From: Ignavibacteriota bacterium
GTDB taxonomy: Bacteria; Bacteroidota; Ignavibacteria; UBA10030
DNA length: 64,000 bases
Assembly (NCBI GenBank): GCA_963701295.1
Contig: OY969585.1
Coordinates: forward strand, 2,368,001-2,432,000
Direction: 5' to 3'
The translations under genes and the position numbers were made by a program. Below the pieces are notes generated by a model. That model was given only the letters and a program-made list of their open reading frames with translations. It did no database searches and was not told the origin of the DNA. Each line of letters starts with the position of its first letter. Within the stretch, counting starts at the first letter, position 1. Shown in pieces: positions 19,757 to 51,848 of this stretch.

Positions 19757-20023
19757 AGTGTCTCTCAGGGCTTTTTCTTGACTCTTTTAAAATGATTATG
19801 TAACGTCTTGCATACTTAGCAGTTGGGAAGAAGTAGAAGCGGAGACGTATGGTTCCCCTAGCTTGTTCCTTCAGCTTTGGCGCCAAAACGTATCCTGATA
19901 AGAGTATAGAGAAGTATACGAATGAAATTAGCTTTGTCAACCCAGCTAATTGTTAGGTCAAATTATGCAGTCTAACATACGAAAAACTCATGTTAGACTG
20001 TAATATGCAATCCAATCTTCCCA

Positions 20024-20230
20024 ATGGAAGAAACTGAAATATTTGCTCAAGAAGCCGCTGATGTTGGCGCGCAGGCGATTAAGCAAGGTGTTGCGCGAAT
20101 TCAACTCAGTCATCAAGAAATTTACGATACAACACTTCGCGATATAAAAGAGGCTCGCAGTATATTAGATTTGTTAATGAAAGAAAATTTTATTAAAAAC
20201 CCGATATTGCATTTATCGAAGAAGCAGTGA
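20024..20230 (+). pseudogene. C-terminal fragment of a malic enzyme-like protein
   Basis: EAADVGAQAIKQGVAR resembles the malic enzyme C-terminus. Confidence 0.55.
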
Positions 20231-20373
20231 AAAAGGCAATTGAATCAGTTACATAAATCTATAGATAATGCATAGAAAATCGTTTTCTACTATATTGAAA
20301 CAAAACTGAAAATGATACAATTAATTATTCGTATTTGAAATACGAATTGTATTAGTATAAGACGAGGTGTAAT

Positions 20374-22599
20374 ATGAAGAAGATAATTATTAAGATATTT
20401 TTCCCAATTATTGGATTAATATCACTTATCTGGTTTTTATTTCGTGTCGTTCCCAAACCAAGTCGTGCCACGTATCCCTGCATGCGTGTCGCCTATCCTA
20501 TAGCTTCTTCTTTTGTGATCTACTTTCTTGGATTGGTTACTTCTGCTTTTGCTTTTGGCAAAATGAAAGAGCGTTGGAAATATTCACACTATTGGACTAT
20601 GATCGGCTTTTTGGTGATTGCACTAATAACAGGATTTTTCTCTTTTCAGGCAGATCAACCTCCAGTATATGCTAATACAAGCAATCTTGGTGCAGCTAAC
20701 GCACCTATTGGCGAAGCAAAAGGAATATACCCAGGAAGAGTAGTTTGGGTGCATGATTCTGCCGCTACAAATCAAAATTGTGTTCCCGGTTCTTACGGTC
20801 ATGGATGGTTTTTGCCGGAGAACAATAATCAGACAGTTGTAGACGGGATGGTTTCTTCTGCTATTCAAAAACTGACAGGACAGATTACAGATAGTGCTGC
20901 TTGGAAGGCGATATTTGAATATCATAATACGACACGCGGCAAGGGAGCTGTCAATTATGCAGCCGGAGAAAAAATCTTTATAAAAATAAACGCTACAAGC
21001 GGCTGGAGTGGAAACTATAATACATCGGATCTATCAAAGGTATACAATTCAAATTACGGTATCTCCGAAACTTCCCCGGCGATTGTGCTGTCAGTGCTGC
21101 GTCACCTCGTGAGCAAGGTGCGTGTTTCACAGACCGATATCTATATTGGCGATCCGATGAAGCACATCTACAAACACTGCTATGACCTCTGGCATGCGGA
21201 ATTTCCGAACGTCCACTATCTCGATAACAGCTACTCCACGCTGGGAAGAGAAAAAGCAACCGCAAGCACTACAGCAAAAATATATTATTCCGATCACGGA
21301 GCCGTGTTGCGCGCGAACGTTTGGGACCCGGGGAGACCCGGGGGAAGTCCTATCTATAATGATTATCTTTACACAATATTATCAACCGCGGAATATGTTA
21401 TCAACCTGCCGATGTTAAAAGGACACCAGCGGGCGGGCATAACGGCTTTTGCTAAGAATAATTTCGGTTCACAAACCAGAGCAGACGCGTCACAGCTACA
21501 TGACGGTCTTGTGGCTCCGATGCAAATGGAGAATGGCATAACAAGACCTGGATACGGTTTATATCGCGTTCAGGTCGATTTCATGACACATTCACTCACC
21601 GGAAAAAAGAACCTATTTTACTTGATGGATGCCCTGTGGGCGACCGACTACGAAGCGGACGTCCCTTTAAAATGGCAAATGGCTCCGTTCAATAACGACT
21701 GGATGTCTTCGGTATTCGCATCGTTCGATCCTGTCGCTATCGAATCTGTTGGGTACGATTTTCTCCGTTCTGAATTTACTGCCGCGCGCGGCAACTGCTC
21801 TACTGTTGTTCAAATGGATGGAGTTGATGACTATTTACATCAGGCAGCGGATTCGTTGAATTGGGCAAGCGGTATTAAATATGATCCCGACAGTAATGGG
21901 GTACATATTAAGAGCCTTGGAACGCATGAACACTGGAATAATGCTACCGATAAACAATACACAAGGAATCTCGGAATAGGTGAAGGAATAGAATTAATTT
22001 CTATTGATAATTCTTCCCTTCTCGTCCAACTCGTTTCTTTTGAGGTTACGCTTAAAGAAACTCAAATATTGCTTGTATGGAAAACTGCATCAGAAGAGAA
22101 TAACTATGGATTTGAAGTAGAGAGAAGAGCGGTTGTCAGTGATCAGTCATCGATGACCAATACTTGGCAGAAAATCGGGTTTGTTGCCGGTAACGGTTCC
22201 AGCAATATTACGCATGAGTATTCTTTCAGTGATCCCAAGCTTATGGTAGGCAGGTATGCCTATCGTTTGAAACAGATTGATAATGATGGGACGTTTACAT
22301 ATTCGACAAGTGTAGAAGTGAAGATTGGAGCGCCGGCTGTTTTCTCTTTGTCTCAGAATTATCCCAATCCCTTCAATCCTTCTACAAGTATTTCGTTTAA
22401 CCTTCCCACAAAATCATTTGTGTCACTCAAAGTATTTGATTTGATGGGAAAAGAGGTGGTAACACTGGCCGCACAAGAAATGAGCGCGGGAAATCATGCT
22501 CTGCAATGGAATGCGAGTAACCTATCGAGCGGTGTCTATTTTTATCGCTTGCATGCTGGTTCATTTTCTGAAACAAAGAAACTCGTTTTGCTGCGATAA
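20374..22599 (+). CDS. DUF362-like protein with T9SS C-terminal sorting domain
   Basis: RVVPKPSRATYPC, PGRVVWVHD, INLPMLKGH, DPVAIES; QNYPNPFNPST CTD. Confidence 0.8.
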   Translation: MKKIIIKIFFPIIGLISLIWFLFRVVPKPSRATYPCMRVAYPIASSFVIYFLGLVTSAFAFGKMKERWKYSHYWTMIGFLVIALITGFFSFQADQPPVYANTSNLGAANAPIGEAKGIYPGRVVWVHDSAATNQNCVPGSYGHGWFLPENNNQTVVDGMVSSAIQKLTGQITDSAAWKAIFEYHNTTRGKGAVNYAAGEKIFIKINATSGWSGNYNTSDLSKVYNSNYGISETSPAIVLSVLRHLVSKVRVSQTDIYIGDPMKHIYKHCYDLWHAEFPNVHYLDNSYSTLGREKATASTTAKIYYSDHGAVLRANVWDPGRPGGSPIYNDYLYTILSTAEYVINLPMLKGHQRAGITAFAKNNFGSQTRADASQLHDGLVAPMQMENGITRPGYGLYRVQVDFMTHSLTGKKNLFYLMDALWATDYEADVPLKWQMAPFNNDWMSSVFASFDPVAIESVGYDFLRSEFTAARGNCSTVVQMDGVDDYLHQAADSLNWASGIKYDPDSNGVHIKSLGTHEHWNNATDKQYTRNLGIGEGIELISIDNSSLLVQLVSFEVTLKETQILLVWKTASEENNYGFEVERRAVVSDQSSMTNTWQKIGFVAGNGSSNITHEYSFSDPKLMVGRYAYRLKQIDNDGTFTYSTSVEVKIGAPAVFSLSQNYPNPFNPSTSISFNLPTKSFVSLKVFDLMGKEVVTLAAQEMSAGNHALQWNASNLSSGVYFYRLHAGSFSETKKLVLLR

Positions 22600-22609
22600 A
22601 ACAATTGCA

Positions 22610-22767
22610 ACCTAACCAGACGCTCAAGCTGACGGATGCCAGCTGAGTACGTTAAGCATGGCGAGCATAGGTTATAGTTTTTAATTGAAAGTTGGTATAA
22701 TGAACTTGTTTTGTTTAGTATGTTTTGAAAGTTATCAGCGCCGCAGCTTAGCACCGGTCCGTTAGGC
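22610..22767 (+). repeat. attC site
   Basis: ACCTAAC...GTTAGGC with full L boxes. Confidence 0.92.
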
Positions 22768-22813
22768 ACAATGCGCGATTCGGAGTCAGTGTCAAATAAA
22801 AAAGGAAATCACG

Positions 22814-23206
22814 ATGAACAACAAATATTTCATTCCCGCCACAACCATGTTTGGAGGTCTTTTCGTTTGGGTAGCCTTCCTTATCTTTCATGAAACGAAC
22901 GGTGCGATCAATGTGTCGTCGTTGTGGCTAGGAGCGGGACTATGTTTGGTGGCGGGTGGCCTGGTCTTTTTCTCTGCTGTTCGTTGCCGCCAGGTAGGAG
23001 GTCCCCGCATCGGTAATATCGTCCGAACTGTTCTTCTGATTGTGATGACAACAATTACCTACTGGAGAGTCGGTACTGTTGTTGCAGGCGTGCTGGCGGT
23101 AGCAGCGATCACGACTGGATCATTGCTTCTGATGGGAAGCTATCAGTCGAAGGTGGCGGAAGGCTCGGTTTCTTCAGCCGTGCAGGCGAGGAACAAATTC
23201 AATTAG
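22814..23206 (+). CDS. Hypothetical membrane protein (cassette)
   Basis: 4 TM segments between attC sites. Confidence 0.75.
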   Translation: MNNKYFIPATTMFGGLFVWVAFLIFHETNGAINVSSLWLGAGLCLVAGGLVFFSAVRCRQVGGPRIGNIVRTVLLIVMTTITYWRVGTVVAGVLAVAAITTGSLLLMGSYQSKVAEGSVSSAVQARNKFN

Positions 23207-23216
23207 GTGCGCATGT

Positions 23217-23375
23217 ACCTAATCAGCGGCTCAAGCTGACCGGATGAGCGTTGGTACTTTTAACATGGCGAGCATAGGTTTCGGTTTTTAATAATAAATA
23301 TTTCAGCATGAACTTGTTTCGTTTGGTACAGTTTGAAGGTTGTCAGTGCGGCAGCTTAACCGCCGTCCGGTAGGT
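23217..23375 (+). repeat. attC site (mutated cores)
   Basis: ACCTAAT...GGTAGGT. Confidence 0.85.
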
Positions 23376-23406
23376 GGCGTTTTAACTACTGATCAATAGG
23401 AGAAGA

Positions 23407-23955
23407 ATGAAAGTATTATTAATCATTGATATGCAAGTAGGATCATTTAAACCTGAAACGCCGTGTTATGATACTGATGGTGTTGTTCAAAGAATAAATT
23501 CATTATCAAATTATTTCCGACAAAATGGAGATAAAGTCATTTTTATCCAACATGATGGAACAAAGGAAAACTATTATATCCCTGGTACGTTCGATTGGAA
23601 TATTTTACCAACTCTAATTCAAAGTACAGACGATATTATCATTGGCAAAACGGCTAATGATTCATTTTATCATACAGATTTAGAAAGTGTATTGAATAAA
23701 AACGATATAACTGATTTATTTATTACAGGTTGTGCAACCGATTATTGTGTCAATGCAACAGTACATTCTGCTTTAATCAAAGATTATAATATCTTCATTG
23801 TTCAAGATTGTCACACAACAAAAAATCGTAAGTATTTGAACGCTGAACAAGTGATTCAATATCATAATTGGTTATGGGAAAATCTGACTCCTACGAATGG
23901 AAAAGTAAAATTAGTTTTATCAAAGGATTTGATAAAAACTCAAAACGCCACCTAA
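23407..23955 (+). CDS. Isochorismatase-family cysteine hydrolase
   Basis: LLIIDMQ, KTANDSF, GCATDYCV. Confidence 0.92.
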   Translation: MKVLLIIDMQVGSFKPETPCYDTDGVVQRINSLSNYFRQNGDKVIFIQHDGTKENYYIPGTFDWNILPTLIQSTDDIIIGKTANDSFYHTDLESVLNKNDITDLFITGCATDYCVNATVHSALIKDYNIFIVQDCHTTKNRKYLNAEQVIQYHNWLWENLTPTNGKVKLVLSKDLIKTQNAT

Positions 23956-24108
23956 CCCGCGGCTCAAGCTGACCAAATGAGCGTTTGTGCAATTTGCATT
24001 TCGCAGTTAAGTTTCGGTTCTTAATAAATAATATTTCAGAATGAACGCAGTTTGTTATCTACAATTTGAAAGTATTCAGTGCGGCAGCTTAGCCGCAATC
24101 CGTTAGGC
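23950..24108 (+). repeat. attC site
   Basis: ACCTAAC-CCGCGG-CTCAAGCTGAC...GCAGCTTAG-CCGC..GTTAGGC. Confidence 0.92.
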
Positions 24109-24150
24109 GGCAAAACATTGAGAAGTAAATCAATTAACAATGGAGCAAAA

Positions 24151-24792
24151 ATGAAAAACTCATTGATTGTGTTATTTCTTCTACCCTGTTTTGCTTTTTC
24201 TCAACCTTCTTCAAAAGTTGCTAACCCTGTCTCATCATCCTCATCTAAAGACTCTACTTTGCTATTAGAAATAAAGAAAAGCTATTCAAGGCAGATCGGG
24301 GCCGCGTTTAAAATGCTGGAGCATGTAATTGATAATGCCAATGATACAGCATGGACGGCAAGAATAAGCAACGTGCCGTTCTGGCAGATATCTTATCATG
24401 TTCTATGGTTTACTGATTTTTATTTTCACGCCAATGAAGCAACTTTTCAACCTCAGAGTTTTGACATGAAAGGAATTCATAATTATTGGGTCTATCCAGA
24501 TTCTCAAATGGTTGAGAATCAAAAGCATCCAATCTCAAAAAGTAATATGAAAGCTTATTGCAAATATGTAAGACAAAAAGCAAATCAATTCATTCAAAAT
24601 ATAAATGTTACATATTTTACTACTCCTTCACCATTTGAGTGGCATGGTTTCCCTAAAATTGACTTAGTGGATTACAATCTCCGTCATCTTCAACATCATG
24701 TTGGACAGTTGGATATTATATTAAGAAGAGATCAAAATATGGGAAATCCTTGGATTATGTTTGATGATTTATCGGAAACACCGAAGAACTAA
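24151..24792 (+). CDS. DinB-family protein with signal peptide
   Basis: FWQISYH; NLRHLQHHVGQL. Confidence 0.85.
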   Translation: MKNSLIVLFLLPCFAFSQPSSKVANPVSSSSSKDSTLLLEIKKSYSRQIGAAFKMLEHVIDNANDTAWTARISNVPFWQISYHVLWFTDFYFHANEATFQPQSFDMKGIHNYWVYPDSQMVENQKHPISKSNMKAYCKYVRQKANQFIQNINVTYFTTPSPFEWHGFPKIDLVDYNLRHLQHHVGQLDIILRRDQNMGNPWIMFDDLSETPKN

Positions 24793-24809
24793 GCCTTTTA
24801 TCGTTTGTG

Positions 24810-24991
24810 GTCTAACCAGCAACTCAAGCTGACGGAATGAGCCCGCCAAAAAGACGGCGGGCAGGCGTGGTACGTTAAGCATGGCTAATAGAGGTTCAGA
24901 TGTTTAATAATAAACTATTCAGAATGAACTCGGCTCGTTTTCAGCAACTTGCGGCTTCTCGTTGCCGCAGCTTAGCACCGGTCCCTTAGGC
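24810..24991 (+). repeat. attC with REP-like insert
   Basis: GTCTAAC...CTTAGGC. Confidence 0.85.
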
Positions 24992-25036
24992 ACACGAGCA
25001 TGAAAATATTATGAATAATTCCATGATTACTCAAAG

Positions 25037-26025
25037 ATGAAGCACCGGTTTACCGAGCAGCAGATTACTTTTGCCTTGAGGCAAGCAGCATCAGGCACAC
25101 CTGTGGTAGAGATAGCACGAAAAATGGCAATTAGTGAGCCTACATTTTACCGATGGAAGACACAATACACAGGATTGGAAGGCTCTGAGATTCATTGGTT
25201 GAAATCACTCGAAGATGAGAATCGGCGGCTGAAGCAACTAGTGGCAAATCTGACACTGGACAAGCAGATGCTTCAGGAGGTGCTGTCAAAAAAGCTCTGA
25301 AGCCTGTCACATGCAGAGAACTGGTAAAAGAGTTGGTGGAAACGTACCAGACAAGCGAACGTCAGGCCTGTGCAGCATTAGGATGACCACGCACGACCCA
25401 TCATTATAGAAGTAAGGCTGATCCTCAAGAGGCATTAAGGATGAGATTGAAAGATTTAGCTGGAGGACGGGTAGGATATGGATATCGAAGGCTTCACATA
25501 TTACTCAAGCGAGAAGGATGGGAAGTTAATCATAAGCGTATTTATCGTCTGTATCGGCACGAAGGGCTGGCATTGCGTAAAAAGCGGCCACGGCGAAGAG
25601 TGGCATGAGTGAAGCGTGAAGTACAACCCACAGCGAAGGAACACAATGAATGTTGGAGTATGGATTTTGTTTCTGATCAGTTGTTCGATGGACGCAGGGT
25701 ACGGATATGAGTGATAGTCGACAACCACACACGTGAGAGCTTGGCATTAGAACCGAGCCAGAGGATCCGTGGGATCGATGTCGTTGCTGTTTTGGAACGA
25801 ATTACTCGTATACGAAGCCTGGCGTCAGGATTACGATGCACAGAAACCTCATAGTGCTTTGGGGTACCTTTCACCAATAGAATTTATTGATGATCAGAAG
25901 AAAAACAAAGCTGCATGAATAAAAATAAACAGCTAAATTATCACCCAATCTGGATCAAAGATGGGGAGCAGTACAAAATGGATAAATATTAACTCATCAT
26001 TGGCACACAATCCGGGTGCAGGCCA
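25037..26025 (+). mobile_element. Degenerate IS3 (OrfA 25037-25300; OrfB with stops and deletion) plus a second IS3 end
   Basis: Similar to 2079-3314; ends GGGGAGCAGTACA (25975) and GGGTGCAGGCCA (26025). Confidence 0.88.
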
Positions 26026-26096
26026 TGTTATGGGAAATTTCTTACAAACCAAAGAATTAGCATAACATAATACGTACAGAAATCAGTATAACCGAT

Positions 26097-28307
26097 ATGA
26101 AGCATTTTGCTAAATCAAATTATTCTAAAGTAAAATTTTTGTATCGTTTATTTATCATCATAGGTCTTCAATGTCTGTTGATTTTCTCCATGCATGCCCA
26201 ATTAAATCAATATCCGCAGAAAAGCTATATACTAGACGATTTTGATCACGATACAACATCAGGTTTCAACGATTTCTTCGGTATGCGTGGAATATGGAAT
26301 AATAATACCGCTATCATCAACCCAAGTTATATTCCTACTGGAGGCAAAAACTATTATTTAAAACTTACCTATGACGTAAGTGATTCTTCTGCTCAAGGTG
26401 GGTGGTGGGAACAGTTTGCATATAACTATTCTAACAATCCGATATTTGATATAAGTGATTTTGATGAATTCAGGTTTTCGGTCAAAGGCGGAAGCACGTA
26501 CACCACCAGATTCTATATTGAATTTGACCAGGGGCAATTCGAAAAAGTGAAACGCATTGAAATCGATGGTGTCACTACGAGCTTTCAGGAAAAAATAATT
26601 CCGCTAAAGGATTCCCTGGTGGGATTCGATTTTACCAGAATGAGGCAGGTCGCTATTGTGCTGGATAGTTCTGCTACTGAAAAAGCGGGAACTCTTTATT
26701 TTGACAATTTTTATTTTGTTAACAAACACGAAAGTTATTCGACCATAGATGATTTGCTGGATTTAATTAGTAAGAAGGCGTGTAAATACTTTTTTGATCA
26801 TGTGCATCCTACAACAGGACTGGTTCGCGATCATTCCAGTGATGTGAATGTATCGAGCATTGCAGCCGTCGGTTTTCAACTTACCGCATTAGGTATTGGA
26901 GCTGAGAGGACTTGGGTGACTAGAAGTGACGCAGCTTCAAATACAAAGAAAATTCTGAAGACCCTTAGTGCCAACCAAGACTCAAACGCAAGTGGAAGTA
27001 ATGGATATAAAGGATTTTATTATCATATGCTCGGAATAAATACAGGATTGAGAGACGGGACGAGTGAGCTTTCATCGATCGATGCGTCTATTTTCTTTGC
27101 GGGTGTAATTTTTGCAAGAGAGTATTTTCATGATTCTACTTCCGATGAAATTCAAATACGGGCGTTGGCTGATAGTATTGTTAATAGAGTAGATTGGAGA
27201 TGGATGCTTGATACACTCAAAAATCAATTTTACATGGACTGGAAGCCTTCTATCGGGTTCGGTCCTTCTCATTGGGATAATTATACCGATGAAGCAATCC
27301 TCATCTCATTTTTAGCTATTGGCTCAGGAAAAGTTGATTCAAGCGTCTTCTATGCGTGGACAAGAGTTCGGGGCACGTACGGAGCTTATACTTTCCGACA
27401 AAGCTATTGGGGTTCACTCTTTACGTATTTGTATGCACATTGTTGGATAGATTTTAAAAAATGCGGTTACGATCATTGTTCTGATTCGGTGAATTGGTGG
27501 AATAATTCTGAACAAGCTGTTAAAGCAAACAGGCAGTTCTGCATTGATAATTCAGCGAATTATTCGACCTATAGCGATAGCAGCTGGGGATTGACTGCTT
27601 GCTTCGGACCCGGTGGATATAACGGTGGAGTATCAAAAAGCTATGGAGCTTTTCCGTTAGCTGATCCCCCGCCTAATCACGACGGGACCATTCCACCGTA
27701 CGGCGCCGGTAGCAGCATAATATTCTTCGACTCGATTCAAAATGAATCAGTAAAGGCTCTAAAAAATTACTACGACAACTATCCCAGGCTATGGGGGCTT
27801 TATGGATTTAAGGATGCATTTAATTTAGGACGGGCTTCCGATTCTACAGATGATTGGTATGCAAACGACTATGTAGGAATTGATATTGGGACATTGTTAG
27901 TCATGATCGAGAACTACAGAACTGGTCTAGTATGGAATTATTTTTTGAAGAATAAGTATGTCGCAACTGCAATAAAAACAATCTTCAAAAAAGATATATC
28001 AGCCTTGTCACTCTCCGTCGAATTCAATGTTAGTAATATACCGGAAAGTGCTTTCCTGCAACAAAACTATCCTAATCCATTTAATCCTTCAACGACAATT
28101 TCATTTAGTCTTCCATCACAATCATTTGTATCATTGAGAATATTTGATCTATTAGGAAGAGAAGTGGCAACTATTGTCTCTGAAGAAATGTCAGCTGGTA
28201 ATTATTCCAAACGATGGAATGCGGCAAATATATCGAGTGGAATTTATTTTTATCGGTTACAGGCAGGCACATTAACTGAGACCAAAAAACTCCTTTTGCT
28301 GAGATGA
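26097..28307 (+). CDS. GH144/glucoamylase-like hydrolase with N-terminal CBM-like domain and T9SS CTD
   Basis: SSIAAVGF, GFYYH, ELSSID, YGFKDAFN, GIDIG; CTD. Confidence 0.8.
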   Translation: MKHFAKSNYSKVKFLYRLFIIIGLQCLLIFSMHAQLNQYPQKSYILDDFDHDTTSGFNDFFGMRGIWNNNTAIINPSYIPTGGKNYYLKLTYDVSDSSAQGGWWEQFAYNYSNNPIFDISDFDEFRFSVKGGSTYTTRFYIEFDQGQFEKVKRIEIDGVTTSFQEKIIPLKDSLVGFDFTRMRQVAIVLDSSATEKAGTLYFDNFYFVNKHESYSTIDDLLDLISKKACKYFFDHVHPTTGLVRDHSSDVNVSSIAAVGFQLTALGIGAERTWVTRSDAASNTKKILKTLSANQDSNASGSNGYKGFYYHMLGINTGLRDGTSELSSIDASIFFAGVIFAREYFHDSTSDEIQIRALADSIVNRVDWRWMLDTLKNQFYMDWKPSIGFGPSHWDNYTDEAILISFLAIGSGKVDSSVFYAWTRVRGTYGAYTFRQSYWGSLFTYLYAHCWIDFKKCGYDHCSDSVNWWNNSEQAVKANRQFCIDNSANYSTYSDSSWGLTACFGPGGYNGGVSKSYGAFPLADPPPNHDGTIPPYGAGSSIIFFDSIQNESVKALKNYYDNYPRLWGLYGFKDAFNLGRASDSTDDWYANDYVGIDIGTLLVMIENYRTGLVWNYFLKNKYVATAIKTIFKKDISALSLSVEFNVSNIPESAFLQQNYPNPFNPSTTISFSLPSQSFVSLRIFDLLGREVATIVSEEMSAGNYSKRWNAANISSGIYFYRLQAGTLTETKKLLLLR

Positions 28308-28324
28308 AACAATTGCCACCGAAC

Positions 28325-29733
28325 CACTTTAAAAAGGAATAAGTCAAGAGAAAAGAGTACTCCCGAGGCATCAAGTGATCTATGATGCCGTGTTTGTTCT
28401 TTGAATTAGTTGTCACCGATACACGCCCGCCACAAGATACCGCACGGCGGGCAAGCCGCAGTGCCGATAGATTTATCGAGCGGACAGCCATACCGAAGCA
28501 ATGACGTCCAAACCATTTTTCGGATTAACCTCCAATTCATCAAAATACCGATGGTGGAAGCATGTCTCGTCCAAGCGAGAGGTTCCAGATATTTTCACGG
28601 CGCAACGCCTGACTTCCCAATCCAGCGGACGATGCTCTTACGGCATCAGTGAGGAAAGCGGGCTTGTCAGGCGCGGCCATTGCTGAGATTTCTGTCGGTT
28701 GATCGGCTGCCCTTTGAGACCATTATATGATGTTTTGTTCTTTAAGACATAGTAAACAATCTTTGCAAGCTCCTTCGCAAGAACAGCATAGGCGGTTGGC
28801 TCGTTAGATCGACGAGCTAATTTCTGAAAGAGACGTTTGTATTCAGGATAATACTGAACAGCATGGACAGCGGCATCAGAGAAGGCGATTTTGAGATACT
28901 TATTGCCGTCTTTGCTGGAACGGTGGTGCACGGAACGATTGGGGTTATCAGCCGCAGGGACAAGTCGGCAGTACGAGACAAATCTCTTATCAGAGTCGAA
29001 GCGTTCGATACCGTCGATCTCAAGATACACCGTGAAGGCTGAGAGCTTGCCGATCCCTGGGATGTGCAGGAGACGTTGAATATCGTCATTGGGGATCAGG
29101 ATCGGATGGAGAGATTTTTCCAGAGCGAGGATCTGAGAGGTGAACATATCGCGAGTATGTTCCAGCACAGCAGTCTGGAAGCGATAGGGATCATGGACAG
29201 AGCCGTTAAATTTGGCGTGAATGCTGTAGAGACGCAGCAGACAGGCAGAGCGTTGCTGAACGAGCCGTAAGCGAATGCGCATGGTATCTCGTAAGCCGCG
29301 AAGATCGCGGCTGATTTTATGAGCTTGGGGAATGAGTCCCTGCCGTAAGAGGATAGCGAGAGTTTGCGAATCAACTTTATCGGTCTTAACTTTAGCATAG
29401 CTGATGGCTTTGAGATATTTTGCGTGAGCAAGGACGAGATCGATGCCGTGGTCTTCGAGTAAATCGTTGAGCCAGTACCACCCGGTGGTAGACTCGACGA
29501 CAGCCTGATGGGAACCAGGCAAGGAATGGAAGTAATCGAGAACCACCTCGTTGCTATTCTCGACGCGTTGTTGTTTGATGACAGCACCGGTGTCATCGAC
29601 AGTGGTGATATAACTATTATCAGAGTGCAAATCGATACCTGAGTAATACATGGGAATCTCCTATTGTTGATGATGAATGTTTAATTCTTCAAGCTAAACA
29701 TACAAAATCGGGAGGTTCCTTTTTGGTAATATC
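28325..29733 (-). mobile_element. IS110/IS1111-family attC-targeting element, copy 1
   Basis: Subterminal IRs AAAAAGGAA/TTCCTTTTT; ~310-nt non-coding region downstream of tnp. Confidence 0.92.
28638..29651 (-). CDS. IS110-family recombinase (putative catalytic Ser to Pro)
   Basis: GIDLH, VVEST, KTDKVD, IPGIG. Confidence 0.95.
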   Translation of the reverse strand: MYYSGIDLHSDNSYITTVDDTGAVIKQQRVENSNEVVLDYFHSLPGSHQAVVESTTGWYWLNDLLEDHGIDLVLAHAKYLKAISYAKVKTDKVDSQTLAILLRQGLIPQAHKISRDLRGLRDTMRIRLRLVQQRSACLLRLYSIHAKFNGSVHDPYRFQTAVLEHTRDMFTSQILALEKSLHPILIPNDDIQRLLHIPGIGKLSAFTVYLEIDGIERFDSDKRFVSYCRLVPAADNPNRSVHHRSSKDGNKYLKIAFSDAAVHAVQYYPEYKRLFQKLARRSNEPTAYAVLAKELAKIVYYVLKNKTSYNGLKGQPINRQKSQQWPRLTSPLSSLMP

Positions 29734-29972
29734 TAACAACTCAAGCTGACGAAATGAGCGCCCGCCCAAAGATAAAGCTTGGCGGGTAAATGGGTACGTT
29801 AAGCATGGCTGGTGGTAGGTTATCGTTATTATTATTAAGTTCTTTGTACCTTATATATTTTTGTGTAATTAATTTTGTTATCAGCATGAACTTGTTTCGT
29901 GTTCAATATATTGAAAGTTTTCAACGCCACCGCTTAGTGCCGATCCGTTAGGCGGTCTCAAAGCTGGCATCA

Positions 29973-30509
29973 ATGGAGGATATTGCAATGCAAGTTTCCG
30001 ATTACCAGAGTCTAATTCACCAAATGGAGTGGGCTGATGCACTGATTTGGAGATCAGTCCTAAATCTTCCTTCATTGGAATTGGATAGACCCATGCGGGA
30101 ACGTTTGCACCACTTCCATTCGACGCAATGGGCATACGGCCAATTGATGCGAGGAATGCCGCTAGACATCCCCGACCTGAGTACTTTCTCGAACTTGAAG
30201 GCAATCGGTCTTTGGGCATGGCAGTTTTACAAAGAGGTATCAGCGCATTTTGACGGGCTGACCGAAACGGATCTTAAACTCAAAATGGAGTTCCCATGGG
30301 CTGCGCAGATAACCAAACGTTTTGGTAGCGTGGGGCCAGCGACCGTAGGGGATAGCATCTTACAACTTGCGCTCCACACGAGCTACCACCGAGGTCAAGT
30401 GGCATTGCAACTGCGTGAAGCCGGCGGCGAACCCCCACTCACTGACTACATTGCTTGGATCTGGATGGAACGACCCACACCGGATTGGGTATTCATTGAT
30501 GCCATCTAA
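29973..30509 (+). CDS. DinB-family protein
   Basis: HTSYHRGQ. Confidence 0.88.
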   Translation: MEDIAMQVSDYQSLIHQMEWADALIWRSVLNLPSLELDRPMRERLHHFHSTQWAYGQLMRGMPLDIPDLSTFSNLKAIGLWAWQFYKEVSAHFDGLTETDLKLKMEFPWAAQITKRFGSVGPATVGDSILQLALHTSYHRGQVALQLREAGGEPPLTDYIAWIWMERPTPDWVFIDAI

Positions 30510-30700
30510 CCAAGCGCTCGAGCTGACGGAATGAGCGCGAGTGCGTTAAGCATGGCTGGTGGTGAGTTTGGGTTTTATTTATTACGTTTATTGTACTTCA
30601 CAACTTTAGTGTCTATAAATTTGGTTTTCATCATGAACTTGTTTCATTGGGTGCAAGTCAATAATTATCAACGCCGCAGCTTAGTGCCCGTCCGTTAGGC
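30504..30700 (+). repeat. attC site (long type)
   Basis: ATCTAAC...GTTAGGC. Confidence 0.9.
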
Positions 30701-30752
30701 CGCCGCATAGAATAAATGTACCCGTCTAATCGTAATTGAGGAGATCGTCTTC

Positions 30753-31226
30753 GTGGAAAAGAATCCTAAAATCTTCGACTATCAACTCCAACTTATTACA
30801 CGACGATGGCAATATTTTGCTACATATCTTGTTATCGTTGGACTTTTTGCTAATATAGTACCAAAGATATATTGGAGTGATAGTACTCAAATTGCTACCA
30901 ATCTCATTCCAATAGAAATCAGGATTTGTATTCCCGTTATTGGAGTTCTTATTGGTATGATCTTTTGTCATTTTATTTCTCTTACTACTTTCAGAATAAA
31001 CTATATAGAATCCTTTTTTACTGAAAAGGAATCAATCACTCACAAGCATATGGATGGGAAATTTTATGGTAAGTCTGAAACTGTATTCACATATATTATC
31101 ATCTATATTATTTCTGTATTTTGGATCGCCTTGCTTTTCAGTGTAAATAAATATATCGCCATAATCATGATAGTTATTGTTAACTTAAATCTTTTCACAC
31201 TAAAGTGGAAAAGACCTATACGGTAG
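30753..31226 (+). CDS. Hypothetical membrane protein (cassette)
   Basis: RBS; 4 TM segments. Confidence 0.7.
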   Translation: MEKNPKIFDYQLQLITRRWQYFATYLVIVGLFANIVPKIYWSDSTQIATNLIPIEIRICIPVIGVLIGMIFCHFISLTTFRINYIESFFTEKESITHKHMDGKFYGKSETVFTYIIIYIISVFWIALLFSVNKYIAIIMIVIVNLNLFTLKWKRPIR

Positions 31227-31265
31227 ATGGAAAATATGAAGGATGAAATTCTTTCAAAAGCGGCG

Positions 31266-31467
31266 CTTTAACCAGGCGCTTAAGCTGACGGAATGAGCGT
31301 TGGTACGTTAAGCAAGGCGAGCATAGGTTCTGTATAAATTTGAAAGTTCTCATAATGAACTCGTTTCGTTTAGTGTACATTGAAAGTTCATAGTGTGGCA
31401 GCTTAGTTTAATCCAAAATATACTTTTTACTAAATTTATATTGGATCACTTTTTTGGGGGCACGTCA
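31266..31467 (+). repeat. attC lacking R', followed by an IS3-like end
   Basis: CTTTAAC...GCAGCTTAG then GGGGGCACGTCA. Confidence 0.75.
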
Positions 31468-31566
31468 CAATTGATTCGATAAATTATTTAAACATGATTG
31501 ATAGAAAATCAACTTGAAATCCCTTTTAAACAAGAATATATTTATTCTATTCATCCGGAGAACAAA

Positions 31567-32742
31567 ATGATAAAGTCGTATTTCCTTTTATTGTTGCTGA
31601 GTTCTGTTGCTCTTGCCCAATCGCCTGTCCCATCCGGCGCGAAATTAATAACAGTATCGACGGGAATAGAACAGCCCGAAGGTCCGGTATGGAAAGATGG
31701 AAATTTGCTCTTCAGCGACATTCAGGGTAATGTCATATATAAATGGTCACCCGTCGACAGTTTGCGGACGGTATTTCTCTCACCATCGTGGAATTCCAAC
31801 GGCTTGACACTTGACAAGCAAGGGCGGTTGATTCTCACCCAGATGGGTCTTCGGCGGGTATCACGTCAGGAGACCGATGGAACAATCACCGTTCTCACTG
31901 CGACGTTCAGAGGAAAACGATACAATAGTCCGAATGATATCGTCGTGAAATCTGATGGATCGATATTCTTTACTGACCCCGACTATAATGTCCCTGCCGG
32001 TCAGTCGCCAGAACTCAATTTTAAAGGCATATACAGGATAAGTCCGTCTGGAGTTGTGACATTGCTCGACAGTACATTTGACAAACCGAATGGTATTTGT
32101 TTTTCTCCCGATGAGAAAAGATTGTATGTCAACGATACACCAGTGCGGAGTATTTATATGTGGGATGTTGTGGACGATTCGACAATTACAAATAGGAGAC
32201 TATTTTACCAAATTCCCTCGAACTCAGGTGGGGTTGATGGAATGAAGGTTGACCAGGGAGGTAATATCTATTGCGCTGGACCAAACGGGTTGTGGATTAT
32301 TTCATCGACCGGAACGTATCTGGATAAAATCCCCATATCTGTTGGTCCTTCAAATTGCGCTTGGGGTGATTCCGATGGAAAGACGTTATATATCACCGGG
32401 GGGTATGGAGACGGAACACTATATAAAATCCACCTTGCTCCGGCCACAGGAGTCGAAGATTATGGAGCTCTTCCCAAAGCGGAGTTTGAGTTATATGCAA
32501 ATTATCCCAATCCTTTTAATCCATCAACAAACATTTCTTTCAGCCTTCCAAAACGATCTTTTGTGTCATTGAAAGTATTTGATCTAATTGGAAGAGAGAT
32601 CACAACGCTTCTTTCTGAAGAATTGCCAGCGGGAAACCACACGCGACAATGGAATGCTAACAGAGAACCAAGTGGAATTTACTTGTATCGTTTGCAGGCT
32701 GGATCATTTACTGAGACGAAGAAATTGATTTTGCTTAAGTAA
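31567..32742 (+). CDS. SMP-30/gluconolactonase with T9SS CTD
   Basis: PEGPVW, NSPND, PNGICFSPD, DGMKVD; CTD. Confidence 0.92.
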   Translation: MIKSYFLLLLLSSVALAQSPVPSGAKLITVSTGIEQPEGPVWKDGNLLFSDIQGNVIYKWSPVDSLRTVFLSPSWNSNGLTLDKQGRLILTQMGLRRVSRQETDGTITVLTATFRGKRYNSPNDIVVKSDGSIFFTDPDYNVPAGQSPELNFKGIYRISPSGVVTLLDSTFDKPNGICFSPDEKRLYVNDTPVRSIYMWDVVDDSTITNRRLFYQIPSNSGGVDGMKVDQGGNIYCAGPNGLWIISSTGTYLDKIPISVGPSNCAWGDSDGKTLYITGGYGDGTLYKIHLAPATGVEDYGALPKAEFELYANYPNPFNPSTNISFSLPKRSFVSLKVFDLIGREITTLLSEELPAGNHTRQWNANREPSGIYLYRLQAGSFTETKKLILLK

Positions 32743-32754
32743 ATGGCAATTGTA

Positions 32755-32790
32755 CGCTAACCTACTGGTCAAGCTAACGGAATGAGTGTG
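32755..32790 (+). repeat. attC left half
   Basis: CGCTAAC..GTCAAGCTAACGGAATGAG. Confidence 0.7.
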
Positions 32791-32955
32791 GACATCAAAA
32801 GACAGGAAAAATGAAAAAGCAAATCAAAGTTTTACCCATAAACTAAGAAATCCTACCCGAATTCCATCGATGAAGATTCTTCTTTAGACTTAGTAGCGGG
32901 GGCAGGTCAAGCGATTCCAAAAAATATTTTTTTTAGAATTTATTTTTTCTCTTTT

Positions 32956-33213
32956 ATGCGATTTTGTTACATTAGGTCTGCAATGTTCTCATTAATCTAT
33001 TCAACCCGACATACTTCGTGTGGTCAACTTGTCCGGATCTCTGACTATCGTTTTCAGTCACGAGAAGATTTGAAGCTGCATCAGAACTTTGAACCATTGA
33101 AGCTCCATTGCCCAAAGTGCTTGTTAGAAATAAACGCTACTCATTTTGAGCCGTGGGAATTCGTGCGTTTAGGAATGGAAAGAATTGCTGATGAAATGCC
33201 TCTTGAACAATAG
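32956..33213 (+). CDS. Small hypothetical protein (HxxC...CxxC)
   Basis: Homologous fragment at ~12975-13090 supports coding. Confidence 0.4.
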   Translation: MRFCYIRSAMFSLIYSTRHTSCGQLVRISDYRFQSREDLKLHQNFEPLKLHCPKCLLEINATHFEPWEFVRLGMERIADEMPLEQ

Positions 33214-33290
33214 TATGAGGTGCGTGGAAAGCTACTACAAATGATATGGTTTTATTTTTAAAAAATATGATTAAGTTACTTATGTTATCT

Positions 33291-33319
33291 TTGACACTCC
33301 TCGTTTCTTTCTCTATATT
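33291..33319 (+). promoter_or_regulatory. Sigma70-like promoter
   Basis: TTGACA-N17-TATATT. Confidence 0.6.
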
Positions 33320-33478
33320 CTTACGCGGTGTAATTTAGTAGAGTGATATCGTAGAGGTAATTTATTTAATCTCATCTCATAATGGAGTAGACCATAGAAA
33401 AGAATGAGATGCAGTAAAAGTAGACCAAAACTGCTTGCTTCAAGTATGAAATAATCCCATCCAAAAGAAGGGAAAAGG

Positions 33479-36400
33479 ATGAAATTTAAGCCGTTTTTGA
33501 TACTGCTTTTTCTCGTTGATAGTTTCCCTATTATTCATGTCCATGCAGCGGTTGATGGTACCACTGGGACACCACTGGGTGGACTTGGAACCGGTGCAGT
33601 GAAGTTCAATGCTGGCTATGGTACTTTCACTTTTAATGATCAAACGCCCACACGGTACGGAGATTATCAGTTGCTTGCCGGAGCTCAGTTTCAGCTTTAT
33701 ACCAAGAGTGCCGGGTCTATTATAACCAGCTATCCTCTCAAAGCTACACAGATGTCGGGCAGGATCGATGACAATGCTGTTTTCCCGACACACCAGGTCA
33801 ATTTCGGGATCTTAAATGGTACCGGAATCAATCTGAATGCATTCGGGCCTTTCGATCCTATTGTCTCTGATAACATGGCATTCCCGGGTGCATTCTACGA
33901 TTTCACGTTTACCAATACTGGCGATTCGGAGTCGGAAATATCTATAGCGTTTCAAATGACAACCGAACAAAATCCGATCATCATTAGCGGAAAAGGATTC
34001 TCAGACGAGACGGGCCTCCATCAAAAATGTGTCTTTGTTTACGACGAACAAGGTTCTGCAGTTGTAAGTGTCGGAAGCGACAGCGCTTTTTTTCAGACCG
34101 GGAATTGTGAGAATAGTATTAGCGGGAAAACAAATAGAGCTGCGGCTTTTTTCAAACTTCCAGTAGGTGGCGTAAAGACGGTTACCTTCATCTTTGCATG
34201 GTACAACAATTCTGATAAGACACGTTATTACTATACAAATTTTTATGGTAAAGCTACCGAAGTGGCAAACGCGGGGTTGATTCATTTGCCGGTATATAAA
34301 CAAGCCGCTTTTTCATTTGTGAACCGCATGCGAGCGTCAAACCTACCGTCATGGATCATTGATCAAACATTAAACTCGCTTGTCAATATCGTAAATAACA
34401 GCATTTACACAGCGGATGGTCGTTACTGCCACAATGAAGGAATGTATCAGATGGATGGCACCATGGATCAGATGTGGCATAGTCGGCAGATCAACGTCCA
34501 ACTTATACCGGAGATTGCCTGGAAAGAACTCGAGTATTGGGCACGGTGTCAGAAAAAAGCCGTAGCTTCAGAGGGTCAAATTCATCATGATTTCGGGAGT
34601 AATGCCACATACACGATCGCTAGTTGGGATGAATCGGAATATCAGGATTATCGCGATATTGATGCATGGGTGGATTTGAATTGCGGTTTTATTATATCTG
34701 TCTATGAAACTTACATTGCTACGGCAGACAGTATAAAACTTGCTTATCTATGGCCGTATGTGAAGAATGCGGGGCAAAGAATTTTAAATCAGGTCGTTCT
34801 CGAAGGTGATAAAACATATCCCTATACGTTTTCGACTTCCTCAAGTTCGTACGATAATGGGGGTGAGTCACAGGCGTTTAATTCGGGTTTGTCGATAGTG
34901 ACCTACAAAGTCCTTCATTCGCTTGCTGAGGAAATGGGTGAAACGGTTCTGGCTTCTACGTATACGGCAGCATGTGATACTGCTATAAAATATTTCTCCC
35001 AACGTTGGCTCGATCAACCATTTATAACAGGAAAAGCCTGTGAGTCTATTTTGGGGGGACCCTGGATAGCGAATTTTCTAAAATTGGATCAAGACTGGGC
35101 ATCATCAAAACTGAATATTCTTTTTTCCACGATTACTAATTTTTATAGTCCCCTTGGAAGCGGGCTAGGATATGCAGGTGGATCATATGAAGAATGGCAA
35201 ACGTACCTTGTTGGTCATCTCGGAGGCTATGCCCTTCAAACTGGTAGAGTCGATATCTGGCGCGCTTTACAGTATGATATGTATGAACGCAACACGCTTG
35301 ATCGCAATCGGGTCTTTAATGAGCCATTGGGCATACCTTCGAAAGTTATGTCCCCGGTTTACATTGCATCGAATTCCAGCAGTGCCGATCAGTACATCAG
35401 CATTCCGGTTTTGTGGCGAAATTATTATGACCTTATCGGATTTCATCGTAATAAGGCAACTGGAGAACTCTGGCTGGAACCGAATCTTCCGGCAGAATTA
35501 AATCATAACCTTTTGAACGCGTGTATTATTTCTCCCGAGGGATACGCCACTATAAGCACCTCTGAAAGCGGAGACTCGTGGCAGAATCAAAGAATCACTT
35601 TTACATCTGATAAGTCGATTCAGGTAAACGCGATTTATGCAAAAGATAAATACAGCGACACTATCCGGTCAGTCCGGGTAAATGGAGCAGACAAGCAGTA
35701 TATTCGGGTGGGGACCGGGTATCAACGGCAACTGAAAATTATCTGGTCTGGCAGCATCGATTCGTCGGGGATCATACTCGAGGTTGTAGGCGATCCGATC
35801 ATGCTTAAAACTCCTGCGGCACCAGATCAACTCAGAGCCACTTCAGTCTCACCGAGTCGCATTGATCTTGTTTGGCGGAATAATGCCGTAGATGCAACCG
35901 GTTATAGAATCGAATGCAAAATCGGGGGCGTATTTACTACAATTGGAACCGTTGGAGCACATGACACAACATTTTCCCATACAACACTTCTGCAAAATAC
36001 GCAATACTTCTACCACGTTGTGGCTTACAACAATGATGGAAACTCAGGTTTTTCAAATGTGGCGAGTGCGATAACAAAGAGTGCTGGAACAGGTGACGTT
36101 GTGATTGCGATTAATTCCGGCGGTCCCTTGTATCTGGGTAAGGAAGGGACCCAATATATAACGGATGTGAATGCTTCATTCTGCGCTGGTGGGACGGCAT
36201 ATTCCACGACAGCAACCGTTTCGGGAACACCAGATGGCTCGCTTTATCAAACTGAACGGTATGGGATTTTTTCTTATGCCTTGTCCATGCAAAACGGCTA
36301 TTATGAAGTAACACTCAAATTCGCGGAAATCTATCAAACAGGTGCCGGGTTGCGACTATTCAATGTCACCATTGAGGATTCTACGGTAATTTCGAATATG

Positions 36401-36847
36401 GATATTTTTGCCTTGGCTGGGGAAAATTCAGCTTATGATGTAACAATTCCTGTTACTCTTGCGGATGGAATACTCAATATCGCGTTCATCTCTGTTAAGG
36501 ATAATGCAAAACTCAGCGCACTCGTCGTACGCAAAGCTTCGCCGACGGGCGTTAAGAATCGTATAGAACAATCGCAAAAGTGCTTTGCATACTCATTATT
36601 TCAAAATCATCCCAACCCGTTTAACCCGTCGACATCGATCTCATTTACTCTTCCATCGCGTTCTTTTGTAACATTGAAAATATTTGATCTGTTAGGAAGA
36701 GAGGTTTCAACAATTGTCTCGGAGGAATTACCTGCAGGAGACCACTCACGGCAATGGAATGCAGAAGATTTTCCAAGCGGCGTTTACTTCTATCGCTTGC
36801 AAGCTGGTTCATTCATTGAAACAAAAAAACTTGTTTTGCTCAAGTGA
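33479..36847 (+). CDS. GH116-like hydrolase with FN3, malectin and T9SS CTD
   Basis: GTPLGGLGTG, GQIHHD, WVDLN; FN3; LYQTERYG/LKFAEIY malectin; CTD. Confidence 0.82.
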   Translation: MKFKPFLILLFLVDSFPIIHVHAAVDGTTGTPLGGLGTGAVKFNAGYGTFTFNDQTPTRYGDYQLLAGAQFQLYTKSAGSIITSYPLKATQMSGRIDDNAVFPTHQVNFGILNGTGINLNAFGPFDPIVSDNMAFPGAFYDFTFTNTGDSESEISIAFQMTTEQNPIIISGKGFSDETGLHQKCVFVYDEQGSAVVSVGSDSAFFQTGNCENSISGKTNRAAAFFKLPVGGVKTVTFIFAWYNNSDKTRYYYTNFYGKATEVANAGLIHLPVYKQAAFSFVNRMRASNLPSWIIDQTLNSLVNIVNNSIYTADGRYCHNEGMYQMDGTMDQMWHSRQINVQLIPEIAWKELEYWARCQKKAVASEGQIHHDFGSNATYTIASWDESEYQDYRDIDAWVDLNCGFIISVYETYIATADSIKLAYLWPYVKNAGQRILNQVVLEGDKTYPYTFSTSSSSYDNGGESQAFNSGLSIVTYKVLHSLAEEMGETVLASTYTAACDTAIKYFSQRWLDQPFITGKACESILGGPWIANFLKLDQDWASSKLNILFSTITNFYSPLGSGLGYAGGSYEEWQTYLVGHLGGYALQTGRVDIWRALQYDMYERNTLDRNRVFNEPLGIPSKVMSPVYIASNSSSADQYISIPVLWRNYYDLIGFHRNKATGELWLEPNLPAELNHNLLNACIISPEGYATISTSESGDSWQNQRITFTSDKSIQVNAIYAKDKYSDTIRSVRVNGADKQYIRVGTGYQRQLKIIWSGSIDSSGIILEVVGDPIMLKTPAAPDQLRATSVSPSRIDLVWRNNAVDATGYRIECKIGGVFTTIGTVGAHDTTFSHTTLLQNTQYFYHVVAYNNDGNSGFSNVASAITKSAGTGDVVIAINSGGPLYLGKEGTQYITDVNASFCAGGTAYSTTATVSGTPDGSLYQTERYGIFSYALSMQNGYYEVTLKFAEIYQTGAGLRLFNVTIEDSTVISNMDIFALAGENSAYDVTIPVTLADGILNIAFISVKDNAKLSALVVRKASPTGVKNRIEQSQKCFAYSLFQNHPNPFNPSTSISFTLPSRSFVTLKIFDLLGREVSTIVSEELPAGDHSRQWNAEDFPSGVYFYRLQAGSFIETKKLVLLK

Positions 36848-36857
36848 AACAATTGCA

Positions 36858-37070
36858 ACATAACCAGCAACTAAAGCTGACGGAATGAGCCCGCCAAAAA
36901 GACGGCGGGCAAGCGTGGTACGTTAAGCATGGCTTTTGGTGGGTTTCAGTTTCATTATTACGTTTTTTGTACTTCATGACTTTTGTGTAATTAATTTTGT
37001 ATTCAGTATGAACTCGTTTTCAAAAATTTGAAAATTATCAGCGCCGCAGCTTAGTGCCAATCCGTTAGAA
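36858..37070 (+). repeat. attC (213 bp, REP-like insert)
   Basis: ACATAAC...GTTAGAA. Confidence 0.9.
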
Positions 37071-37191
37071 CGCACGAATTATATATGGCGTAATTACTCT
37101 AGATTATATGCCGCGCAGCTTGATGATTGGTTTCGCAAAAGAAGTCTGTGGCTTGAACCAATTGAGGAGAACTATACATACTGGAGGCACA

Positions 37192-39216: not shown

Positions 39217-39271
39217 TGCACAAAAATGTCAATCGGATCAGAAGTGACAATTGTTCAAGCTGCGCGGCATA

Positions 39272-39406
39272 TAATAACCAAAAGCACTATGCTCACATCA
39301 TTTGATATGGATTATAGAGTTCGCTCAATGCAGTTTGCCGCGTGTTGGTCGATTCGCTCTTTTGATAGCGGCAAACTGTGTTGCGTGCTTTTGGTAAACG
39401 TTATAT
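39272..39406 (+). repeat. attC-like site of a different sequence family
   Basis: TAATAAC-CAAAAGCAC...CAGTTTGCCGC/GCGGCAAACTG...GTGCTTTTG-GTTATAT. Confidence 0.7.
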
Positions 39407-39438
39407 AAAATATGACAATATAAAAGGAGGAAGAAGAA

Positions 39439-40506: not shown

Positions 40507-40632
40507 CATGCAGTTAAAATGAGGCATGCATCAGAGAATAAAATATTATATGGTTATTTTGCTTTTAATTGGATCCAACTAATTCTTTTGCACATGTATT
40601 GAATATAAATATTCTACAGCGTGCGTTCTAAC

Positions 40633-42024: not shown

Positions 42025-42283
42025 TAACAACTCAAGCTGACGAAATGAGCGCCCGCCCAAAGATAAAGCTTGGCGGGTAAATGGGTACGTTAAGCATGGC
42101 TAATAGAGGTTTAGATGTTTAATAATAAACTTATCAGAATGAACTATAGAAGAGGAAACACGCTGCGCGTGTTACAGTTATGGGGCTCCGCCTGTTATCA
42201 GTAACTTGCGGCTTCTCGTTGACGCAGCTTAGTTGCCAATCGTTAGGGCACAATTACTCATTCATTAGTTAGCTGGAAGATTT

Positions 42284-44890: not shown

Positions 44891-45049
44891 GATAATTATG
44901 TCCTAACCAGTTTAAAAAGGAAAGAGTCAAGTAAATAATATACTCCCGATGCGTTCCGCGCAATCGGAATGCAGAGTTCTTTAACATTAAGGACGACCGA
45001 ATCCGTGCCGATGCCGCGTTCTCTATCGAATAGACAGGCGATTACCAGA

Positions 45050-45216
45050 GCAATGCCGTCCAAACCAGTTTACGGATTTACATTCACTCATTGAAGAAAC
45101 GATGGTGAAAGCGTATCTCGTCGAGCGAGATGTTCCAGATATTACCACGGCACAGCGCACTCTCTTCCCAATCCAGCGAACGATCCCGACGCAGTCGGGA
45201 TCAGTTAGGAAAGCGG
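45050..45216 (-). ncRNA. Predicted bridge/seek RNA of IS110 copy 3
   Basis: Four guide-like segments match the target and donor junctions. Confidence 0.65.
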
Positions 45217-46206: not shown

Positions 46207-46464
46207 GGGAATCTCCTTAGATTGTGGATGTTGGTGACCTAGAGAATTATCAATGTACATAATCGGGAGATTCCTTTTTGGTAATATCCAGCAACTCAAG
46301 CTGACGGAATGAGCGTAAGTAAGTACAAAATTGAAAGAACTAGCATGAACTTGTTTCGTTTAGTATATTTTGAAAGTTATCAGTGTCACAGCTTAACTGC
46401 CATCCGTTAGGCAGCGCAGCGTGCAGTAAGTGCTAATTGAAATAGCAAAAGGAATAAAACGCTT

Positions 46465-51776: not shown

Positions 51777-51848
51777 GATTCCTTGTTTTGCCCATAAAAT
51801 AGAAAATCCTCACGGATTTTCATCGATGAGGATTCTCCTTTAGTGTGT

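Follow-up and report, generated by a model that had tools for sequence, protein, structure and literature searches.

How does an ordinary chromosomal gene acquire an attC site and become a mobile gene cassette? The question is raised by four genes in a 64,000-nucleotide stretch of an Ignavibacteriota bacterium (GCA_963701295.1, here G000; contig OY969585.1), which lies at G000:2368001-2432000 and is called the window below. The four genes are of unrelated catalytic type, and each ends in a closely similar C-terminal domain (CTD) of the type IX secretion system (T9SS), followed by the same spacer into the R'' box of an attC site. An earlier note on this DNA proposed that one ancestral CTD-attC tail has been reused by recombination through the CTD. 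The analysis supports that proposal by a break of homology at the CTD start, an attC-free orthologue of the DUF362 gene and a biased distribution of the spacer, with direct evidence for one of the four genes. The DUF362 gene is probably a relative's chromosomal gene that was joined at the secretion-signal motif, likely through that motif, to a CTD-attC tail, and the other three genes likely arose in the same way. One route from a normal gene to a mobile gene cassette has likely been caught here. Positions are those of the window unless prefixed G000.

A shared tail behind four unrelated genes

The four tails quoted in the earlier note are present exactly, at 22597-22616, 28305-28324, 32740-32761 and 36845-36864, and its cargo families agree with Pfam: DUF362, Glycoamylase (PF10091, which we take to be GH144-like), SGL and GH116. 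All four genes score above the Pfam cut-off for Por_Secre_tail, the type A CTD of T9SS substrates, from which secretion of the chimeric DUF362 protein is predicted. The DNA of the four CTDs is 68–73% identical in all six pairs, and pairs involving the other three window CTDs are 52–59% identical. Over the 240 nt 5' of the CTD motif, identity among the four genes is 41–49%. The note had proposed mapping where homology ends upstream of the CTD; it ends at the CTD start.

The spacer carries the hexamer CAATTG. Within 22 nt past the stop codon it is found in 15 of the 24 CTD genes of G000 that are directly followed by R'' and in none of the 86 others (Fisher p 1e-12); these linkage labels were assigned by eye, and three genes with degenerate sites, one of which has CAATTG, were kept separate. 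Seen from the attC side, CAATTG lies 5' of R'' in 12/19 CTD left arms and 1/159 non-CTD left arms. As a flank, this hexamer belongs to one cassette family. The note had named as its own weak point that spacer and CTD subtype might be equally common in CTD genes without attC; in G000 the spacer is confined to one side of that comparison.

R'' comes directly after five of the seven window CTD genes; the note had counted six. One exception, 37108-39216, opens a two-gene cassette, and the other, 52766-55402, has a right arm only, 300 nt away. The further statement that a complementary R' is missing directly upstream holds for all four genes. This headless state is atypical of the tail, since among the 24 linked genes, counted by eye, a complementary head is present in 14, the head of 3 is mismatched and 7 lack one. 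Whole attC sites follow the DUF362 and GH116 genes; an IS110 element interrupts the GH144 site, and the SGL site consists of a left arm. A long attC variant was considered for the SGL site and rejected, as the DNA that follows is a copy of a tRNA 3' end. Both core boxes, R'' RYYYAAC and R' GTTRRRY, are present in the sites after DUF362 and GH116, and R' is absent from the SGL site. On the bottom strand the two whole sites are predicted to fold into a hairpin in which the L boxes pair and some bases are extrahelical; this canonical fold has the lowest energy after DUF362 and comes within 0.6 kcal/mol of the lowest after GH116; the hairpin is obtained when the sequence is cut at the core boxes, and unconstrained folds with long flanks did not yield it. 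None of the four genes combines an intact upstream att site bearing R' with an intact downstream attC, so they are not classed as excisable single cassettes.

Donor locus and junctions of the DUF362 gene

In G011, another species of the genus, the DUF362 gene stands behind an intact malic-enzyme gene, and the 40 kb around this locus contain no attC match. The orthologue lacking attC that the note wished to see compared is therefore available for this gene, and it diverges exactly in the CTD motif. The common tract (20022-22385; 2369 nt) comprises the malic-enzyme 3' end, the spacer and the gene, and is 97% identical, whereas the flanking genes of G011 and their G000 orthologues are 69–80% identical. 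G000 also has its own malic gene, whole and 80% identical to that of G011, so the tract at 97% is foreign. Malic enzyme ahead of other DUF362 homologues was found only in the G011-type locus (18 and 29 loci examined).

Both ends of the tract are sharp. On the right, the window differs from G011 at 73 positions in the 2364 nt up to 22384 and at 101 in the following 215 nt. The last exact match, 22329-22355, is followed by four silent changes within the motif (binomial p 0.013 against background), which places the crossover at or just before the motif. Past it, similarity to 15 module CTDs (those of the shared attC-linked tail) is 70% for the CTD of the window gene and 54% for that of the donor. 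On the left, the tract begins inside the malic gene, next to a decayed attI-like site without R box, which makes DUF362 the first gene of a former integron. A promoter on the other side of this site points away from the array and is possibly that of a lost integrase gene. Contigs from all four sequencing runs examined (four studies) stop matching at 20022-20024 and 22385. The 26-nt stretch before the junction gave a single match in a metagenome scan, L049, which is 100% identical to G011 over 8026 nt and for that reason is not counted as independent. The best copy of the window tail in five relatives is 78% identical, too distant to name the recipient cassette.

The motif is present about 100 times in the genome, several array genes contain frameshifts and the joined form is seen in none of the runs examined, all of which would fit an assembly error that joined the gene of a co-occurring organism to the array at a repeated motif. 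Such an error would require two independent misjoins, one of them, malic gene to attI, without a repeat. G000 is one contig of 3.64 Mb, 99.3% complete and 0.23% contaminated; the join is in frame, the window copy has substitutions of its own relative to both donor types, and like switches occur in other genome pairs. We give an assembly error very little chance.

The point at which the sequences part also bears on whether attC was attached past the stop codon, by IntI or a group IIC-attC intron and independently of the CTD, with the similar CTDs stemming from one donor lineage. The change in the DUF362 gene begins 215 nt before the stop, within the gene, and the same spacer follows unrelated cargoes. 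The group II intron reverse transcriptase profile TIGR04416 gave no match in G000 (the control matched 3/14). Three resolved 5' joins at att boxes hint at IntI and speak for such an attachment, as do the attC-linked CTDs outside the module type described below. As a general account it is hardly likely.

Direction of the exchange

The 90% protein cluster of the DUF362 gene has five members. Before the motif (662 residues) the window protein differs from P0122 at 16 positions and from P0001 at 22, and P0122 and P0001 differ from each other at 28. After the motif (70 residues) the corresponding numbers are 37, 35 and 13. Ahead of the motif, each of P0122 and P0001 is closer to the window protein than to the other, and yet the two share the attC-free CTD, which makes the attC-free tail the older one. 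A soil strain 91% identical to G011 likewise continues through the G011-type attC-free tail and flank. On these distances and this strain, the swap took place on the window's lineage and the attC-free tail is the older state.

The opposite course, in which an ancestor with the window CTD and attC was replaced in the G011 lineage, would account for CAATTG after the G011 stop codon, a mark of the module, and for the location of the G011-type gene at a synteny break. It would require two parallel losses to the same CTD, given the P0122 and P0001 distances, and is very improbable. Exchange through the motif is needed in either direction.

The tail in other genes and in the CTD tree

Nine CTD genes of G000 have a close relative. 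The tail switches at the motif in three of them, divergence begins further upstream in two, and four show no switch; the nine pairs are a lower bound, the genus-wide pair search having covered the window and 5/14 fetched G000 regions (L064, L065, L066, L067 and L069). The three switches are those of the DUF362 gene, of 52766-55402 against G011:C74 (90%), where the relative carries another CTD with CAATTG and an R''-like box, and of G000 3145458 against G004:C87 and G008:C11. With three switches among nine pairs, exchange of the CTD at the motif is a common event in this genus, with the attC tail among the tails available for it.

Complete beta-propeller T9SS cassettes form a widespread family that bears the tail in numerous copies. 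Among 67 cargo loci of G000 and its relatives, chosen by their tail and including four unlinked G000 genes, 34 fall in one single-linkage cluster of BNR-type beta-propellers. The remaining cargoes are unrelated (GLUG, FG-GAP, S41, GH5, GH16, GH43, esterase and others). The tail pattern is present in 12/16 genomes of the genus, and a stricter pattern in 10/201 of the order, including 3/3 of one other family. Unrelated cargoes also have a common 5' leader beyond the complementary flank, as in the GLUG and esterase cassettes (81% over 53 nt). In keeping with a gain of the tail, the distant GH116 and SGL homologues (66–70% DNA identity) end in other tails and lack attC in 3/3 examined.

A profile search found 113 CTD-bearing frames in G000. 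The tree was built from 96 CTDs (258 columns; 17 weak, partial or motif-less hits omitted) and is poorly resolved. The earlier note asked whether attC-linked CTDs form a clade. They are clustered, needing 10 changes of the attC label against 20.8 when shuffled (0/500); a single clade is rejected, since at least four changes are forced on the tree. In a leave-one-out module profile, 16/23 attC-linked and 3/71 unlinked CTDs score above 30; the profile was built from attC-linked genes, so these scores are partly circular, and the background omits four unlinked CTDs that resemble the module, which are treated separately. The 7/23 attC-linked CTDs below 30 and the four or more changes indicate that attC has joined CTDs more than once. 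Two attC-linked CTDs (G000 3157497 and 3543623) are mosaic, with the last block alone of module type.

Several other arrangements of the tail were seen. CTD cassettes with differing 5' and 3' flank types stand at G000 3337461 (behind a minimal attI-like box), 2823081 and 2883398, as expected if tails swap between cassettes. A headless beta-propeller gene common to G000 3148322 (minus strand) and L146 stands behind two different attC sites, both cut at one and the same point past the L' spacer, as ahead of SGL. CTDs of module type with a decayed or absent attC, some in ordinary operons, lie at G000 28255-28812, 2434317-2437346, 2555193-2557082 and 3073195-3074925, and possibly represent return traffic from array to chromosome. 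Locus L109 (G004:C47) has seven consecutive CTD genes, three with nearly the same CTD, and almost no attC.

Alternatively, the headless genes could be old cassettes, once complete, whose 5' ends were removed by insertion sequences or deletion, the tail being due to old common ancestry. The arrays are indeed decaying, with an IS110 element in attC, an IS3-like remnant before the GH144 gene and half sites; 14/24 module-linked genes have matching ends, and for three of the four genes the search for a donor came up empty. This explanation leaves the malic remnant and native spacer of DUF362, 97% identical to another species' chromosome, unaccounted for, and it still needs a way to place unrelated cargoes on one tail. 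For the whole set it is unlikely; for GH144, SGL and GH116 taken singly we would give it somewhat less than an even chance in each case.

Further observations weigh against a recruitment through the CTD motif. No close donor for GH144, SGL or GH116 was found by DNA among 30 relatives; their protein clusters have one member each. Those 14 module-linked genes are plain complete cassettes that bear no trace of their making. The chimeric junction is absent from the 4 runs examined, of 20 with matches, so a single assembly supports the junctions, though a gap in such matches has no weight as evidence. The anchor spans some 30 nt with roughly 85% identity, against 51% in the remaining CTD, which is short for ordinary recombination over long homology; anchors of homology-facilitated recombination are usually far longer, over about 150 nt. 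CAATTG also follows the stop codon of the attC-free donor tail and of some attC-free G004 genes, and across the genus the spacer is thus not exclusive to attC genes. The CTD diverges faster than the rest of the protein even between donor-type strains (13/70 vs 28/662). The donor gene, with CAATTG in its tail, may itself have passed through an array earlier.

A proposed route from chromosomal gene to cassette

In the course we propose, a foreign gene would enter by DNA uptake; comEC, dprA and recA are present in G000. The short conserved motif would then serve as crossover, giving an in-frame protein that would still be secreted, with attC behind it. The host translocon gene sprA, the sole component searched for, is present (2037-aa frame; SprA_N 150.7 bits). 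Either an illegitimate join close to a resident att site may have set the 5' end together with the crossover, or IntI may have done so afterwards at a secondary site. If the join fell within the leader of a resident cassette, the ends of the new cassette would match; if it fell upstream of R', headless genes like those of the window would arise. The canonical G-TT point is used in 0/3 of the resolved 5' joins at att boxes, a number too small to decide. Whether IntI acted in a second step or one RecA-dependent event made both joins, the resulting sequence would be identical.

The route starts from an existing cassette; it recruits T9SS genes into arrays and does not create attC. Going further, we tentatively suggest that the T9SS C-terminal signal might act as a built-in recombination handle that turns any secreted-protein gene, even another species', into a cassette, the CTD motif providing the 3' join to the attC of a founder and att boxes the 5' join. 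DUF362 behind attI would then be a snapshot of this process, and the arrays a shuffled library of secreted enzymes. We regard this wider picture as a little less probable than its opposite.

Setting of the arrays in the window and the genome

The features of the window are collected in Table 1.

Table 1. Coordinates of the genes, sites and mobile elements in the window
Position	Strand	Feature	Basis or remark
19913..19940	-	sigma-70-like promoter TTGACA-16-TATACT, directed away from the array	sequence reading
19951..20017	+	decayed attI-like site; repeats and L box kept, R box absent	73% over 67 nt to the intI-side attI, E 0.003
20022..22385	+	tract 97% identical to attC-free G011 chromosomal locus	2369 nt, 96.96%
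20022..20257	+	malic-enzyme 3' remnant, frameshifted	whole in G011
20374..22599	+	DUF362 + immunoglobulin-like + CTD gene, chimeric at the CTD motif	
22329..22385	+	crossover zone: 27-nt exact match 22329-22355, then NYPNPFNPST with 4 silent differences	
22357..22616	+	module tail: attC-type CTD, stop, CAATTG spacer, R''	
22610..22767	+	complete attC	canonical bottom-strand hairpin is lowest in energy, -14.2 kcal/mol
25037..26026	+	broken remnant, presumably IS3-like, in the place expected for the GH144 gene head	
26097..28324	+	GH144-like gene: module CTD, spacer, mutated R''	
28326..29730	-	IS110-family element splitting attC just past R''	transposase 28638-29651
31269..31414	+	attC cut past the spacer that follows L'; 152 nt of different DNA stand in place of R' ahead of the SGL start	
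31567..32791	+	SGL (gluconolactonase-like) gene: module CTD, spacer, attC left arm	
32832..32906	-	tRNA-Met 3'-end copy and downstream hairpin, array end	
33479..36864	+	GH116-like + fn3 + malectin gene: module CTD, spacer, R''	no head R'
36858..37070	+	complete attC	canonical fold -21.2 vs minimum -21.8 kcal/mol
37064..40632	+	two-gene cassette with matching ends; CTD gene 37108-39216 without module tail	
42242..44907	+	GH5 CTD cassette, matching ends, non-module CTD	
52766..55402	+	CTD gene without attC	90%-identical G011 copy switches CTD at motif

G000 has one full integron integrase gene (3566721-3567662; TIGR02249 453 bits vs a cut-off of 265) and seven attI-like copies besides the attI linked to it. 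Integrase-less arrays headed by attI copies stand at G000 224104, 1796905, 2464753, 2834172, 3172114 and 3446594 and at window 19951, and an N-terminal integrase fragment adjoining IS3-like remnants lies at 1403-1885, where the window's array starts. At E <0.001, 146 left and 158 right attC arms were found, mostly in about ten clusters. In most cassettes the 5' flank is the complement of the cassette's own 3' flank over 12–16 nt. Beyond the core, 81/119 non-CTD cassette pairs are complementary at 7/10 positions or more, and the window array matches worse than others. Short repeated cassettes of 213–314 bp with little or no coding room occur at G000 230647, 231081, 232252, 1799599, 2478547, 2478983, 2486248 and 3166342-3167226.

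Two IS110 types insert just 3' of R'' on the opposite strand (28326-29730, 40634-42021, 44909-46285 and others), which we take to be of the IS1111-attC kind; one type has at least nine near-identical copies. Reverse copies of the tRNA-Met 3' end with a hairpin close arrays at window 32832-32906 and 51785-51906 and at G000 1811366-437, 2440843-894, 2819431-560 and 3133080-202. They are often joined to half an attC, and the real tRNA-Met gene (c1811584-1811657) lies 150 nt past one copy. Such ends suggest that whole arrays may travel as blocks or islands.

Comparison with known systems

What is new here is, in our judgement, probably a well-mapped example from nature in which a chromosomal gene acquired attC by way of a domain common to both partners, a variant of a proposed route that is limited to T9SS genes. 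Our literature search, which left most subscription papers and all supplements outside, found no account of CTD-mediated cassette recruitment. The locus supplies donor, product and both junctions for one route to cassettes, and the route is thereby testable. A shared domain beside attC should suffice to recruit chromosomal genes. Cassette pools are predicted to be enriched in genes that share a 3' domain with a founder cassette, and free exchange of T9SS signals at one motif is likewise expected. The explanation covers neither cassettes without a common domain nor the first attC.

Sedentary integrons and attC-site clusters that have no integrase (CALINs) are already on record in Ignavibacteriae (PMC9024848). 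The present genome is alike in its IntI, attI, homogeneous attC sites and many integrase-less arrays, and differs in that about one in nine left arms (19/178) lies behind a large T9SS gene, many with one tail. A 2026 paper lists cassette genesis as a gap and describes atypical cassettes whose sites are truncated, IS-interrupted or delta-attI, as well as attG insertion (PMC12901181). The present genome, too, has half sites, sites split by an IS and joins that fall at the L box of attI; the cases described there alter sites of existing cassettes and bring in no chromosomal gene. Recruitment of cassettes by IntI from transformed single-stranded DNA is reported in PMC12614218.

In the group IIC-attC intron model (Leon and Roy 2009, as summarised in PMC7923331), a shared repeat lets homologous recombination join attC to the 3' end of a gene. 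The two are alike in that a repeat common to the gene and an attC-bearing partner mediates the 3' join. Here, however, the repeat encodes a domain of the protein and lies within the gene itself, nothing needs splicing out, no intron reverse transcriptase was found in G000, and a natural before-and-after pair is at hand.

Homology-facilitated illegitimate recombination is proposed, in PMC5361080, for type VI secretion system effector and Rhs modules, where one conserved anchor and one non-homologous join insert foreign DNA and swap variable domains on a constant one. Both elements lie on the same tract in the window, the anchor in the CTD motif (22357-22385) and the non-homologous join in the malic gene (at about 20022). 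With an anchor of such length and identity, below the size given above, the window case works like this process and is not filed under it. It differs also in that the anchor is a 3' secretion signal and not a 5' carrier, is very short, and leaves a product that gains an integrase site.

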